Source: Burkholderiales bacterium (GTDB lineage: Bacteria; Pseudomonadota; Gammaproteobacteria; Burkholderiales; SG8-41). Taken from it: a stretch of DNA of 40,762 nt. A program made the translations under genes and the position numbers. Numbering within the stretch: the first letter of the stretch is position 1; every line of letters starts with the position of its first letter. The notes under the pieces are model-generated. The model was not told the origin of the DNA, searched no databases, and saw only the letters and a list, made by a program, of their open reading frames with translations. Location: the NCBI GenBank assembly GCA_919902235.1, contig CAKKQX010000017.1, positions 1 to 40,762 on the forward strand, given 5' to 3'. This document shows positions 15,107 to 23,765 of the stretch, piece after piece.

Positions 15107-17146
15107 CTACCTTGTGCACCAATACGCAACGACGGCGGTTCCGGTCGGCGTGCTGGTTTTCGTCCAGTTGAGCGTGAAGCCGTCGGCATCCATGGATTGC
15201 ACGGTCGCGGTTTGGTAAGCCGTGGTGCTGGTGCCGACTTTGATGGCGTAGGATGCCGACGCCTGCGTAAGCCCCGCACCCGCGTCGCCGATAGTCAGCG
15301 AAATGTTGGTCGTGACATCGGACGCGCCGAAGCCGCCGACGTTGGACGACACGCCGTCGAAAAACACACAAACCGCAGGGGCAAACCCAACGCCCGTGAC
15401 CGCTTGGGTTCCGCTGGCCGTGGTCAGGTCGCGCGTCGCGAAAGAGATTTTGTTTTTCGTCGCTCCGCCGACGGTGGCGATGATCGCCGCCGCTTGCGTG
15501 GCGGTGAGATCGGCGGGCGCGCCCGTACCCGCTCCGCTGGCCCGGCCCTTGATCGTCGTTTGGGCCATGTCGGACATGGAAATAGTGCCGGTCGCCACAA
15601 TCGGCGACGGCGAAGCGGTGAGGCCGGTGCCGGCGGCGACGCTGGTGACCGTGCCGCTGCCCGCCGCCGTGGTCCACGACGGATTCGCGCCAGCTCCGGC
15701 CGTCGTCAGCACTTGTCCGTTCGTGCCGGGGGCGAGCGCCGTCCAGGTCGAGGCGTCGCGATAGATGACCGCGCCTTGCGTGGTGGTGATCGGAGTGAAG
15801 TACGGGTCGAGGCCGGTGAGCCCCATGAAGAACTCGCCGGTAGCGCCGGGGCCGGTCGAACTGATGGCGGCGGCGCCGTTCCCCAAAAGCACCGATCGAT
15901 CAATGAATGAAGTCTGCCCGGTGCCTCCAAATCGAATTGGAGAGATGCCCAGCGCCCATCGCGTCGCGCCATTGGAGGTATAGCACACACTAGCGAACGC
16001 GGTGCTGATAGTCTGATTCGAGGAACTGCCGTTGATCGTATCGCCGCCAGTGACTGCAATGGCCAAAGGCGCGGAGGTGGTGAGAACTCCAGCGCTATCG
16101 TAAATGCAAACGGACTGCCCAGCATTCACCGAATTTGCCGCTGCCAACGTCCATGTGCGGGTTGGCGTCAAAGCCACGCTCGTAATAACCGTGCGATCCG
16201 TGGGAAGAATTTGGTAATTGACATCGCCCAACGTGGTCATCTGGTCGATATTCAGGCCCGCCGACGAGCGGGCGCCGGCCGCCGTGGTGTTCGCCGTGCC
16301 GCCGCCCGATAGGCCGAGGGTCAGAAAATCCGGGTCAACCGACGCGCCAAGCGACACTAGCGGCTTGCCCGCCGTGCCAGGCCCGGTGCTGCTGATCGCC
16401 GACGCGCCTTGGCCGAGCAACACGGCATGGTTCGTGTTCGCGATCTGTCCGGTGCCGCCGTAGGGAACCGTGAGCGGAGCGGCCACGTCGGCTGTAAACG
16501 CGCACGCGCCCGACGTGCACGGACTGCCGCCGATGGACAGCGTGGCGTTCGTGCTGCTGATCGTGACGCCGGTAAGCGTTCCCTCGGTCGAGGTGATGGT
16601 CGTGCCGGAAATGGCGAGACCGGCTCCAAGAGTGATTTCCTGCGGGGGGCCGCTGCTGGCCGTGCCGCGCCCCAGCAGCCGCGAAGCCGTCACGTCCTGG
16701 ATTTTGGCGTAGGTCACGGCGGCGTCGATGATTCCGGTCGTCGTGATAGCGTCCGTGGCGACCTTGGCCTGCGTCACCGCCGCGGCCTGGATGTTCGTGG
16801 TGCTGACGCTGTTCGCGCCCAGCGGCCCCAGATCGAACGCGCAATTTCCGCTGACGCAGGGCGACCCGCCCACCGAGAGCGTGCCGTCCGTGCTGCTAAT
16901 CGTGACGCCGGTAACGTCCGCGCCGCTCCCGCACACCTGGAAACTCGGATCGCTCGCGCCGCCGTTCGAGGTCAGGCACCAGCCCGCCGTGCCGGGAGCC
17001 GCGCCGCGATAGCCGACGACGCCGGGACCGGGCGAGATTAGGACAGAACGATTGGTGACGACGCCGGGGTTGGTCTGTGCCAGGGCGCCGACGATGCCCG
17101 CGCACAGGATCGCGGTCGCGACGAGAAGGCGTTGCCACGGCTTCAT
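15107..17146 (-). CDS. Tail fibre-like protein with N-terminal signal peptide
   Basis: 679 aa, Thr/Ser/Gly/Ala-rich; GGTG and [13 protein letters not shown] fibre repeats; [24 protein letters not shown] signal. Confidence 0.75.
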
Positions 17147-17628
17147 GGAGAAACCTCAACATGCCGCCAAGTGCGTCTGTTCAAAATGCACCACAGCGGC
17201 CCCTGTGTAAGACCAAACATGTAGCGAAGTTCCCTGCCGCCCCACCCTTCTTTTTTCTTGCGGAATATCTCCAAAATATCAGCTTCCGTAACTTTCGCGC
17301 CGACCACCCGGCTCCCCCACCTATGGCGGCGCTTGGCAACTTTATCCGCCACGTTGTCAGCATGCGTTCCGATAAAGAGATGATCCGGGCGCACGCAGGG
17401 AGGATTGTCGCAGCGATGACAGACACAAAGACCATCAGGCACACGCCGCTCGTTTGCCATCTCCCACGCAACCCGGTGGGAAGAAAGCCATCTCTTTTGC
17501 CCGTGTTGGCTTATGGTAAAATTACCCCGGTTCCATTGAGTGCGCGGGCCGCGCCAAATCCAACAGCCATCGGTCTTTTCGACCTTGCTCCAAAATCGTG
17601 CGCGGTCCCTTTCAGTAAGCGCCGTCAT
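17143..17628 (-). CDS. HNH homing endonuclease
   Basis: [49 protein letters not shown]; lower GC; ATGA overlaps on both sides. Confidence 0.9.
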
Positions 17629-18059
17629 GTGGTTACCCAACCTGTGCCGTCAGGCCGCGGGCGCAGCGCCAGGGCCGCGCGGTCGCCCGCCACGGCGTAG
17701 CTCGAAAGCCCGTCGATGGTCTCGACTCCGGCCGGGTTGACGGTGATGTTGAAGCTCGACGCCACGCCCTTGCTGTCCTTGAAGATCACCGGGAACATCG
17801 GGCCATAGGCCGCGTACCACGAAGCCGAGGTGGGCAGCGTCGCCGTCGAAGCTCCATTGACCGCGGGCTCGATAAAATAGACGAACACCGGCGCGGCGAC
17901 GGTGAACGCGCCGCTCACGGTGCGGATCGTGCCCTGGAAGATCAGGCTCAGGATGGTGATGAAGAAATCCAGATCGTTGATCTGGTTGATGAGGTTGTTC
18001 AGCGCCGCGCGGTTCTGCGTCAGGTCTTGCGGCCCCGAGATGAGCGGAATGCGCGCCAC
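17625..18059 (-). CDS. Tail-associated structural protein (no signal peptide)
   Basis: TLP...IFKD.KG...[13 protein letters not shown] beta-sandwich motif common in fibre/baseplate proteins. Confidence 0.6.
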
Positions 18060-18063
18060 GACG

Positions 18064-22223: not shown

Positions 22224-22303
22224 GTGCGGTCGCTCCGCGTGACCGTGCCTCTGACGATTTCCTCCCTGTTGAACTAGCCCCGCTTCGGCGGGGCCTCTTT
22301 TTT
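22224..22303 (+). ncRNA. Candidate small RNA antisense to the lysis cassette
   Basis: TTGCCA(22189-94)-17-TAAAAA(22212-17), 5' hairpin 22226-46, single-stranded CCTCCC, then a plus-strand intrinsic terminator. The 5' end is estimated. Confidence 0.45.
22277..22303 (+). terminator. Rho-independent terminator (plus-strand polarity)
   Basis: GCCCCGC-TTCG-GCGGGGC-CTCTTTTTT. Confidence 0.7.
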
Positions 22304-22671
22304 CAAGTGCCGCTGCCGAAGAACTTCATCAGTTTCTCGACCCACACGATGCCCGAGCCGCCCGCCGTTGGAATGCCGACGCCAAACGCGATGCCCGTGG
22401 CCCTGGCCTTTAGGCGCTCCATGTCCTCGCGGTGCTTCTTCAGGCCGCTCACGTCGTGCTTGACCGCCTCGACATCCTGGACGAAGCCGCGCAGTCCGAG
22501 CAACTCGACGTTCATCACATCGAGCTTCTGCTTGAACGCGCCCCAATCCTTCAGGAACTCGTCGCCCTGCTTCATCCGCATTTCCATGATCGTCTCGATC
22601 TTGGTCAGGCGGTCGCCGAACTGAATTGCCAGATCGGCCGCGCCGTTGCGATGGCGGGGAGGCACGGTCAC
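22303..22671 (-). CDS. Coiled-coil protein with C-terminal hydrophobic segment (lysis-associated candidate)
   Basis: RLTKIET...coiled coil...GIAFGVGIPTAGGSGIVWV; upstream of the endolysin. Confidence 0.5.
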   Translation of the reverse strand: MTVPPRHRNGAADLAIQFGDRLTKIETIMEMRMKQGDEFLKDWGAFKQKLDVMNVELLGLRGFVQDVEAVKHDVSGLKKHREDMERLKARATGIAFGVGIPTAGGSGIVWVEKLMKFFGSGT

Positions 22672-22676
22672 ATCAC

Positions 22677-23765
22677 CTAGTTGCGAATTATCTTGTTCAC
22701 GACGGCGGTTGGCTGCACGTTCTCGCTCGACCCGCCGGCGCCGCTCGATACCGCGCCCGACGCGCCCGTGACCGCCCCGTTGCTCGGCCGAACGATGTCC
22801 AGGTTCGGCGGCGTGCCGACAGCTCCAAACAAGGAGCCGACGCCATCGGCGGTCACACGCAAAGGCGTGGGAGTCGAGCCCGTGGAGATTCCTCGCGCCG
22901 CCGCGCTATCGACATAGGTTCCCGCCGCATGGGTGTGCGCCTGCATCCGCTGATCGCCGCAGGTCGCCCCCAGCGTCGTTCCGGTGCAGCCGCTCGTCGC
23001 CGTGAGACGGCTCGCCGCCGACCCGCCCATGTCGTCCTTGCCGGCCGCCAAGCGCCCGCGCAGGTCCGGCAGCCGGAAATTCCCCGCGCCCTCGCCGCCC
23101 GTGTTCCAGTTGGTCGAGATCGCCGTGTAAAGCCCGGCATAGCCCGCCTGGGCCACGATCTGGCCATAGGTCAACTGCCAGCCAGCCGGGGCGGTAGCCC
23201 CGGCGAAGTCCTTGACGACCCCCGGATCGTCGGTAACGGACGGATTCAGCAGCAGATAGCGGCTGCCGTCGTACATCAGGTTGTAAAGGCCGCCCGAGAC
23301 GATCTCGCCGCCGCCCAGCGTCGTCACGCCCGCGCTGCCGGTAGCCCGGTAGATCGCCGTCGCGCCCGTGGAGACCGCGTTCATCGTGGTCGCGCCAGTG
23401 TTCGACACCGTGGAGATGAACGACAGGATTTTCCCGGCCACCAGGGTGAAAGCGTTGGGCGAGACCGTCGTGACCACCAGCGTGTTGGGCGTACTGGTGA
23501 CGGCGGTGGCGTAGTAGTTGTTCGTGCCGCCCTGGGCCGCGCTCAACGGCGTGGTCAGCCCGGACAGGCTGGTGATGTCGCTGTTCGCGCCGTTGGCCGC
23601 CGCGTTGGCGTTCACGCAGGCTATCGTGGCGTTGAAGTTCGCCATCACCTGCGTCGCGCTGGCGGTCGTGCCTTCCTGCAAATTGAACGGAGCCGAACCG
23701 CAGATCACCGCCTGGGCGGGCGACGCAAACAGCAGCGCCGCCAGGAGGGCCAGAATTTTCTTCAT
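22677..23765 (-). CDS. Tail fibre/collar-domain protein with N-terminal signal peptide
   Basis: MKKILALLAALLFASPAQA|V; ASATQVMANFN head; collar motif PGVVKDFAG.TAPAGW...YAGLY.AI...NFRLPDLRGR; C-terminal NVQPT.VVNKII. Confidence 0.8.
   Translation of the reverse strand: MKKILALLAALLFASPAQAVICGSAPFNLQEGTTASATQVMANFNATIACVNANAAANGANSDITSLSGLTTPLSAAQGGTNNYYATAVTSTPNTLVVTTVSPNAFTLVAGKILSFISTVSNTGATTMNAVSTGATAIYRATGSAGVTTLGGGEIVSGGLYNLMYDGSRYLLLNPSVTDDPGVVKDFAGATAPAGWQLTYGQIVAQAGYAGLYTAISTNWNTGGEGAGNFRLPDLRGRLAAGKDDMGGSAASRLTATSGCTGTTLGATCGDQRMQAHTHAAGTYVDSAAARGISTGSTPTPLRVTADGVGSLFGAVGTPPNLDIVRPSNGAVTGASGAVSSGAGGSSENVQPTAVVNKIIRN

Follow-up and report, generated by a model that had tools for sequence, protein, structure and literature searches.

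Predicted signal peptides and paired cysteines in tail-fibre genes of an uncultured podovirus group

Introduction

The textbook view is that tailed phages assemble wholly in the cytoplasm. Whether this holds for every tail fibre is the question raised by a stretch of DNA from a Burkholderiales bacterium (contig CAKKQX010000017.1, 40,762 bases; hereafter the window), which is one whole contig in a genome bin of 390 contigs. Four open reading frames (ORFs) on its minus strand, at 22677-23765, 19718-20137, 18064-18492 and 15107-17146, encode proteins of 362, 139, 142 and 679 amino acids (aa), respectively, which lie in a phage tail region and appear to start with Sec-type signal peptides (SPs). 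A preliminary description of the window had proposed that the phage exports these proteins to the periplasm for oxidative folding, and perhaps for O-glycosylation by a neighbouring membrane protein of the Wzy_C family, and attaches them to its particles at lysis. Here we compared the presequences, the cysteines and the gene order of the window with those of homologous proteins and related phage contigs. The results argue for an export signal on a large class of tail fibres and give little weight to the glycosylation part of the proposal.

Results

Four ORFs with Sec-type presequences

The four ORFs are present as described. Each begins with a positively charged n-region, a hydrophobic h-region and a c-region of the small-x-small type, so that all four have the heuristic features of Sec substrates of signal peptidase I, including small residues at positions -3 and -1. 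A ribosome site resembling GGAGG, GGGGA or GAGG is located 6-13 nucleotides (nt) upstream of each start. When a crude n-h-c rule was applied to the 40 proteins called in the window, five were flagged, namely the four ORFs and, through its first membrane helix, the Wzy_C protein; none of the other 35 was. The four SPs of the preliminary description are thus borne out by n-h-c features and ribosome sites, and also by conservation among homologues, as described below. The ribosome sites precede the hydrophobic segments, which speaks against true starts further downstream.

The cysteine counts given for these proteins were recomputed and came out with the same values, and their serine/threonine richness was borne out. 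The predicted mature forms of the 362-, 139-, 142- and 679-aa proteins contain 4, 0, 2 and 10 cysteines, and their Ser+Thr fraction is 0.20-0.26, compared with 0.04-0.18 in the other 36 proteins. The closely spaced motifs WC..VC, PCVSGNC and PCTSGAC are all visible in the 679-aa translation.

A collar-fibre family with and without signal peptides

The 362-aa protein carries a phage tail collar domain (PF07484; E = 4.8e-14, 52.5 bits against a cut-off of 24) at residues 182-239, and its predicted SP comprises residues 1-19 (nt 23709-23765), ending in ...AQA↓VIC, where the arrow marks the predicted cleavage site. Its homologues are of two kinds, either with a presequence followed by the conserved N-terminal domain (consensus xIxxxLPFxLQNGTTADATQVMANFN...) or with the initiator Met directly at that domain. 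We pooled 119 distinct N-terminal domains from database proteins and from the fibres of related loci, of which 88 had an SP (SP+) and 31 had none (SP-less); these and the following classifier counts come from simple rules that were checked by eye on the sequences.

In the 88 SP+ forms, position -1 is taken by Ala in 80 and by a small residue in 85, position -3 by Ala in 63 and by one of the allowed residues in 82, and the first eight residues have a net positive charge in 87. The presequences are 17-36 residues long (median 20) and are free to vary in sequence while retaining the n-h-c features. The small-x-small site nearest to the homology-defined start of the mature domain coincides with that start in 81 of the 88 and lies one residue upstream in seven. 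Conversely, a bare Met stands exactly before the aligned +1 position, that is, at the predicted cleavage site, in 27 of the 31 SP-less forms, and 29 of the 31 have T, S, P, A, V or G as second residue. Such second residues normally permit removal of the initiator Met. Signal cleavage in one kind and Met removal in the other would therefore expose the same mature N-terminus.

To what extent is the presequence spread through the family? Searched against 1.84 billion representative proteins, a profile built from residues 1-66 of the mature domain matched 4670 of them at E ≤ 0.001 (1088 at E ≤ 1e-10). The best 150 of these 4670 matches consisted of 66 SP+, 60 SP-less and 24 proteins unclassified by the pattern, the last being mostly long internally repeated proteins with a few clear SP-less or SP+ forms. 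Roughly half of the collar-fibre family would appear to carry an export signal. The family profile also matches the solved virion fibres 8kec, 8vbx_R, 7z47_D and 1ocy.

Paired cysteines accompany the presequence

In the N-terminal domain of the collar fibres, a Cys at mature position 3-4 covaries with one about 28 residues further on; these are C22 and C50 in the 362-aa fibre, and the homologues retain the SP. The pair is present in 57 of the 88 SP+ domains and in none of the 31 SP-less domains (Fisher p = 1.3e-11). An even, non-zero Cys count is likewise found in 79/88 SP+ versus 10/31 SP-less proteins, with means of 4.33 and 1.81 Cys. By eye, a second pair in the ...GC...TC... region behaves in the same way in our alignment of the family (A1). 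In the library set, the best 150 of 4670 matches, the N-terminal pair occurs in 36 of 66 SP+ and in 1 of 60 SP-less proteins, with ten proteins common to this set and the pooled one.

The 142-aa protein belongs to an unrelated family, in which two aligned Cys columns (APTC and IAYC/IGYC) are filled in all six SP+ members and in none of the 20 SP-less members. Paired cysteines are accordingly found confined to the members with export signals in both the collar-fibre and the 142-aa families, and disulfides are predicted there. These results support the view that the cysteines behave like periplasmic disulfide pairs. Because SPs are conserved and cysteines covary with them in two families, export to an oxidising compartment is, at the level of sequence, well supported.

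The first of the predicted exported proteins occupies a podovirus fibre slot

The window has a G+C content of about 66% and reads as a nearly complete phage contig of about 41 kb. The fibre gene starts 1 nt past the stop codon of a gene for a 540-aa protein, whose AlphaFold2 (AF2) model (mean predicted local distance difference test score [pLDDT] 77) was searched with Foldseek. The top match was the tail of the Pseudomonas phage Pa223 (9nwi_Y, E = 1.6e-16), followed by the nozzles of SU10, VP1, T7 (gp12), P22 (gp10) and PhiM1 (8vbx_A). The model thus resembles many solved nozzles, with E from 1.6e-16 to 1e-9 and template-modelling (TM) scores up to 0.65. It was the fold search alone that revealed this identity; a nozzle profile had no match among solved structures by sequence. 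Because the 540-aa protein folds like podovirus nozzles, the phage is taken to be a podovirus, and according to this model the first of the four SP genes occupies the position where podoviruses keep a tail fibre.

Scans of IMG/VR gave more than 50 contigs with a common gene order, in which terminase, portal, scaffold and capsid are followed by three small proteins, the nozzle and the fibre(s), and then by one further small protein, an acetyltransferase and three large proteins. The last three are Gly/Gln-rich and are taken to be internal or ejection proteins. Many of the contigs are 41-47 kb long and rated complete, and some have terminal repeats. A scan of genome contigs with the nozzle alone gave no match, and one with a further alignment (A2) gave nine loci. 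Nozzle homologues were found in 56 of 83 related loci, and the fibre homologue usually begins 2-96 nt past the nozzle gene, whether it has an SP or not. In the 57 loci whose fibre slot holds at least 100 residues of the N-terminal domain, the occupant is SP+ in 44 and SP-less in 13. The SP status of loci was taken from a looser classifier; a narrower motif missed L040, L041, L044, L051, L087 and L090, and the fibres of L007 and L028, which it had as SP-less, show MKKLLPFFLTLWATFAQA.

An N-domain profile found a copy in all 18 near-complete (at least 90% complete) SP+ genomes. Fifteen of them have SP+ copies only at E ≤ 0.001, 14 with a single copy and one (G035) with three adjacent copies. Of the remainder, G027 and G028 have an extra, weak SP-less mini-copy, and the single copy of G031 was left out of the classification. 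In several relatives, for example L006, L017 and L024, every variable gene from the nozzle to the acetyltransferase and internal-protein genes is SP+. A tyrosine integrase was matched in 3 of 22 near-complete relatives, in one of them above the cut-off. From this gene order and these sequences, SP-bearing fibres appear to be a trait of a whole uncultured clade of 41-47 kb podoviruses and not peculiar to one contig.

The slot shows further variants in single relatives. L003, which has no collar fibre, encodes an 819-aa SP-less protein (11950-14409) that starts with three tandem N-terminal modules (..FTG.GG.NP....DLN.LI..IN) followed by a long Gly-rich tail, and the corresponding region of L043 contains a GDSL-lipase-domain protein (PF13472). 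In L057 (= L058), three successive small SP+ proteins of 197, 195 and 178 aa are encoded past the nozzle (9408-11106), each with a version of the module; the trio is a tandem expansion of what we regard as exported appendages. Past the largest internal protein, L086 encodes an ATP-grasp protein resembling phosphoribosylglycinamide synthetase (PF01071, PF02843; 18919-20337), with homologues in L009, L018, L006, L049, L030, L053, L055 and L065; none was seen in the window.

The other three predicted exported proteins

The 139-aa protein has an h-region of about 23 residues, so its N-terminus could be a signal anchor instead of a cleaved peptide. Past this presequence it reads SLSLFTGPG...DLNTLINNIN. 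A jackhmmer search tied it to an SP+ protein of L021 and to two SP-less proteins of L003 that start at the same motif and, in later rounds, to the N-terminal domain of the collar fibres. One N-terminal module thus seems to be common to the fibres. By eye rather than by model, a second SP+ protein with a mature end like xNVPLLxGP is present in 11 of 25 relatives; jackhmmer recovered part of these second-fibre proteins only.

The 142-aa protein starts at an internal ATG inside a longer open frame. Its AF2 model (pLDDT 83) consists of an N-terminal helix and eight strands, a generic jelly-roll in Foldseek (best E = 9e-4, TM 0.37-0.44), for which Foldseek gave no informative structural neighbour.

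The 679-aa protein contains a weak DUF5907 match (23.2 bits, under the cut-off of 27). Its nearest N-terminal relatives, P0123 and P0143, keep both the SP and the mature motif. The crude rule flagged 34 of the 120 listed matches, and most of the others share the central repeats only. Among these matches, P0197, P0200, P0208, P0215, P0226 and P0237 show an SP followed by A↓QCSGQ..G.(F/V)CGN.. and have 2-9 Cys. Judging from such sequences, the combination of SP and cysteines may extend to other fibre families.

A Wzy_C gene among the fibre genes

The preliminary description had placed a collar-domain fibre, a Wzy_C-family gene and interleaved lysis genes in this region, and domain matches recovered the collar domain, the Wzy_C domain and the lysozyme (PF07484, PF04932 and PF00959). 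The Wzy_C gene runs antisense to the late genes, with an overlap of 156 nt at the 3' end of the 139-aa gene. Its start is likely at 18566 and not at 18284, since the longer frame would run into the divergently oriented 142-aa gene. In a strand test for a lysogenic-conversion moron, it was found opposite to the late genes, on a contig with open ends.

Family and place of this gene were thus recognised correctly, but its identification as a PglL-like oligosaccharyltransferase was not upheld. PglL proteins carry an extra domain. Pfam found Wzy_C and a weak MFS_5 match only in the window protein, with no PglL/PilO-specific domain; NCBIfam gave no match, and solved structures gave only chance-level matches by sequence. 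In the structure atlas, all look-alikes of its model fall in Wzy_C clusters (TM 0.75-0.82, normalised by query), which is the generic look of the O-antigen-ligase family.

Nor did the expected co-occurrence of SP fibres with Wzy_C genes emerge among related phages. PF04932 was matched in 5 of 40 related records; four of these records are among the 22 near-complete ones, and all four are SP+; 4/18 SP+ versus 0/4 SP-less relatives are too few to show a link. The position and strand of the gene vary among phages, and in L037 it is located between two SP+ fibre genes on the same strand. No Wzy_C carrier has a tyrosine integrase match. Because integrases are rare in the group and absent from these carriers, a role in lysogenic seroconversion is not secure either. 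Judged by family and distribution, the Wzy_C gene is most readily taken for an independent accessory gene, one that would alter the host surface polysaccharide.

Lysis genes, neighbouring genes and contig ends

The features discussed here are collected in Table 1.

Table 1. Positions and evidence for annotated features of the window
Feature	Position	Strand	Basis
Large terminase	32933-35386		
Portal	30495-32618		
Major head protein	28144-29490		HK97-type capsid
Tail nozzle (hub) protein, 540 aa	23767-25389	-	AF2 model and Foldseek
Collar-domain tail fibre, 362 aa, predicted SP	22677-23765	-	PF07484, homologues
122-aa protein, hydrophobic C-terminal segment (by eye)	22303-22671	-	No Pfam or PHROG match
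Soluble endolysin, phage lysozyme	21713-22195	-	PF00959, E = 4.8e-06; phrog_7
Holin candidate, 118 aa, two hydrophobic helices	21347-21703	-	Position and sequence; phrog_1544 only
Lipobox protein (..VMAS↓C), spanin candidate	20820-21350	-	Sequence; no family match
Alpha/beta-hydrolase-like protein, 240 aa	20200-20922	-	Weak PGAP1 match, E = 0.002, below cut-off
139-aa protein, long SP or signal anchor (..VYA↓GSLSLFTGPG), then fibre N-terminal module	19718-20137	-	jackhmmer
Wzy_C / O-antigen-ligase-family membrane protein	18566-19873	+	PF04932, 76.7 bits (cut-off 31.7)
Putative exported jelly-roll protein, 142 aa, SP ..LAA↓QNPP, 2 Cys	18064-18492	-	AF2 model, family
SP-less protein, 144 aa	17625-18059	-	Same kind of N-terminal motif at start, by eye
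HNH homing-endonuclease-like gene	17143-17640	-	PF13392, E = 1.8e-11
Fibre-like repeat protein, 679 aa, SP ..ALA↓QTNPG, 10 mature Cys	15107-17146	-	Homologues

The endolysin has no N-terminal hydrophobic segment, signal or signal-anchor-release (SAR) segment. Soluble endolysins of this kind need a hole-forming holin, and such a holin is therefore expected; the 118-aa protein is the candidate, and the lipobox protein is a candidate spanin. The 240-aa hydrolase-like gene directly past the lysis genes could encode an esterase or lipase whose target is the envelope at lysis, or else a surface polymer. Between the 122-aa and endolysin genes, a perfect 7-bp G+C hairpin followed by a T-run on the plus strand (22277-22294) is the strongest terminator-like site in 14500-26000, and all surrounding genes are on the minus strand.

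Further along, the HNH gene fits between the 144-aa and 679-aa genes with overlaps of a few bases at both ends; its G+C at third codon positions is 0.58, compared with about 0.8-0.9 in the neighbours, and it looks like a foreign, recent insertion. The 144-aa SP-less protein had no relatives among the related loci by jackhmmer. Adjoining the 679-aa gene, a 126-aa protein (14636-15016, minus strand) weakly matches small terminases (phrog_309); the large-terminase gene lies about 18 kb away. An acetyltransferase-like gene (13871-14386, minus strand; phrog_1249), also present in 26 related loci, precedes a Gly/Gln-rich 331-aa protein and then proteins of 437 and 908 aa, which are taken as internal or ejection proteins. 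Eight window proteins compared with NCBIfam gave no match.

The window also encodes RecE-like and Erf-like proteins, RusA, a helicase and a primase. It has no tRNA genes. No integrase was found among the window ORFs scanned, a search that did not cover serine integrases or other lysogeny modules, on a contig with open ends. The phage has no close cultured relative: megablast gave no near-identical DNA in cultured phages, and the capsid protein has a best identity of just 24-28% to records of the phage collection. A 25-nt direct repeat is present near both ends (1-25 and 40705-40729). The sequence diverges past this repeat, which therefore does not close the contig into a circle; both contig ends fall within open frames.

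Discussion

How would an exported fibre reach a particle made in the cytoplasm? We propose that the fibres are made with presequences and cross the inner membrane by Sec, that signal peptidase I cuts them after Ala-x-Ala, and that they trimerise and oxidise in the periplasm, where the paired cysteines would become disulfides. The 362-aa collar protein would be the nozzle-proximal tail fibre. Since DNA packaging takes place in the cytoplasm, as does the making of capsid, portal and nozzle, the fibres would most likely meet the particle only after the holin breach. At that stage periplasm and cytoplasm would mix through the holed inner membrane inside a still-intact outer membrane, and the N-terminal module of the fibre could dock on the tail before the spanin step frees the particles. 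In T4, late addition of fibres to finished particles works in vitro, and attachment at lysis is plausible here. That all four genes encode tail-appendage proteins exported by cleavable Sec signals and oxidised in the periplasm, with the fibres joining particles late, is in our judgement an evenly balanced proposition. Somewhat more tentative is its extension to the clade, in which virion maturation would be split between heads and tails built in the cytoplasm and fibres that are exported, trimmed, disulfide-bonded and added between the formation of holin holes and the rupture of the outer membrane. The preliminary proposal of exported, oxidatively folded fibres thus keeps its signal peptides and its conserved cysteine pairing and loses its link to Wzy_C and glycosylation.

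The main alternative is that the exported proteins are not virion parts but act on the envelope of the infected cell, by masking or modifying a receptor or by converting the surface together with the Wzy_C protein; masking could spare progeny or competitors from loss on cells and debris. An SP does separate these proteins from cytoplasmic assembly, an accessory Wzy_C gene lies among them, two of the four are small (139 and 142 aa), and SP-less proteins with the N-terminal module coexist with them in the window and in G027 and G028. Some collar-domain homologues are labelled 'microcystin-dependent protein', and lambda Lom is a signal-peptide protein encoded between tail genes (PMC12309495). Against such a role, the collar protein sits in a conserved slot 1 nt behind the nozzle, where 13 of 57 loci have SP-less orthologues; in several relatives all the variable genes between nozzle and internal proteins are SP+; a lysogen-protecting role fits poorly with so few integrases; and receptors on the outer surface are out of reach from the periplasm. 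We consider an envelope function unlikely, though it deserves serious attention, because of the fibre slot, the 15 of 18 genomes with SP+ copies only and the rarity of integrases.

It is improbable that the hydrophobic N-termini stay uncleaved, serving as inner-membrane anchors for fibres or particles or as membrane-active segments in infection. The h-region of the 139-aa protein is indeed long for a cleaved signal, but the Ala-x-Ala site coincides precisely with the edge of the mature domain in 81 of 88 collar fibres, their presequences vary freely while keeping n-h-c features, the Cys pairs track the presequence, and SP-less orthologues show that the segment is not needed for fibre structure. 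Glycosylation of Ser/Thr-rich exported fibres by a PglL-like O-oligosaccharyltransferase, as an addition to the export model, is improbable as well. The family membership of the Wzy_C protein, the Ser+Thr fractions, the arrangement in L037 and the fact that all four near-complete carriers are SP+ phages without an integrase match would suit it, and are outweighed by the sparse occurrence of the gene, its varying place and strand (antisense in the window) and the generic Wzy_C character of the protein in Pfam, NCBIfam, atlas and structure searches. There is moreover an established alternative in the O-antigen polymerases of seroconverting phages such as D3 and epsilon15. As for a gene-calling artefact with true starts downstream of the hydrophobic segments, high G+C gives many long spurious frames and the 142-aa gene does lie inside a longer one. 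Such an artefact is hardly credible in view of the ribosome sites before the proposed starts, the next Met of the collar protein (residue 41, within the conserved domain) and presequences conserved in kind across dozens of homologues.

Several observations weigh against exported virion fibres. Our SP calls come from a heuristic n-h-c rule and homologue comparison, not from SignalP. Over a tree of the N-terminal domain (95 residues), there are at least 14 changes in SP status and at least six in the Cys pair, and a relatedness-corrected test is without power because just three independent contrasts lie on supported branches (sign test, median p 0.5). The N-terminal Cys pair is missing from 31 of the 88 SP+ fibres, and Cys is absent altogether from the 139-aa protein. 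The fibres of relatives integrated in Burkholderia semiarida and in two Paraburkholderia genomes are SP-less; no cultured SP+ example was found, and the extreme N-terminal module had no match in a phage collection of 50,697 records. Since SP-less proteins with the same module occur in the window and two relatives (G027 and G028), a cytoplasmic set of appendages may suffice for infectivity. Attachment after lysis would dilute the fibres unless it came before the outer membrane breaks, a timing that we infer. Although the genome bin that holds the contig encodes Omp85 and DSBA-family proteins, membership of the contig in this bin is no proof of host.

The virion role of these proteins is likewise one that we infer, from synteny, from the 15 of 18 genomes with only SP+ N-domain copies and from a complex prediction. 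The latter, made for the nozzle with three copies of fibre residues 20-125, scored 0.52 (best of three controls 0.16), with at least 88% contact agreement between runs and a partner pLDDT of at least 69. In the calibration of this score, 58 out of 80 solved complexes passed the mark, as against 2 out of 110 mismatched pairs; passes at 0.60 or below came from just 7 of the 80 solved complexes and from both mismatches. The nozzle-fibre score thus lends weak support, in a band where passes are wrong more often than they are right, unless the pairing was likely to begin with.

In the literature searched, consisting of abstracts and listings, we found no precedent for a tail fibre with a Sec signal, although supplementary tables of virion proteomes could hold one; the matching passages of PMC3556154, PMC3338817 and PMC12309495 describe no exported tail fibre. 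If fibres are indeed exported, lysis timing, the Sec and Dsb machineries and signal peptidase would be host factors for infectivity. The fibres could gain toughness for soil and water from disulfides and perhaps from further modifications made in the periplasm. An SP would no longer be ground to exclude virion proteins in virome annotation, and about half of the representatives of a large fibre family would follow the split-compartment route. SP+ and SP-less orthologues fill the same slot in sister phages and hence are swappable. If, on the other hand, the proteins are not virion parts, they would form a large family of fibre-derived exported proteins within the late operons of apparently lytic phages.

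The proteins of the window can be compared with several known systems. Like the cytoplasmic fibres of podoviruses (T7 gp17 type; PhiM1 gp47, 8vbx; SU10, 7z47) and the short fibre collar of T4 (1ocy), the collar fibre has a gene adjoining the nozzle, a conserved N-terminal module followed by variable distal parts, a profile match and a collar domain. Unlike them, it has a Sec-type presequence, present in 44 of 57 related loci, and extra paired Cys. The bacterial 'microcystin-dependent' proteins share the collar domain, and some have SPs (P0054, P0074), but they are shorter and have no N-terminal fibre module. The Wzy_C protein resembles the O-antigen polymerases of seroconversion and the PglL/PilO systems in being a Wzy_C-family membrane protein encoded next to host-recognition genes, and its subfamily is not distinguishable from sequence.

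Other late phage proteins are also bound for the envelope. Disulfides play a role in some exported phage lysis proteins. SAR endolysins and spanins, such as P1 Lyz and the spanins treated in PMC3556154, resemble the present proteins in being late products bound by Sec for the envelope before lysis, but they destroy the envelope and are no parts of the particle, whereas the present proteins are fibre homologues. Lambda Lom is similarly encoded within a tail-gene region; it is, however, a beta-barrel outer-membrane protein, and the predicted exported proteins here are fibre homologues in a fibre slot. Virion proteins with SPs are a feature of filamentous phages, in which pIII and pVIII carry them and pIII forms periplasmic disulfides before incorporation. 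Those phages extrude at the membrane without lysis, whereas the phage described here is tailed, with a lytic cassette, a terminase, a portal and an HK97-type capsid.

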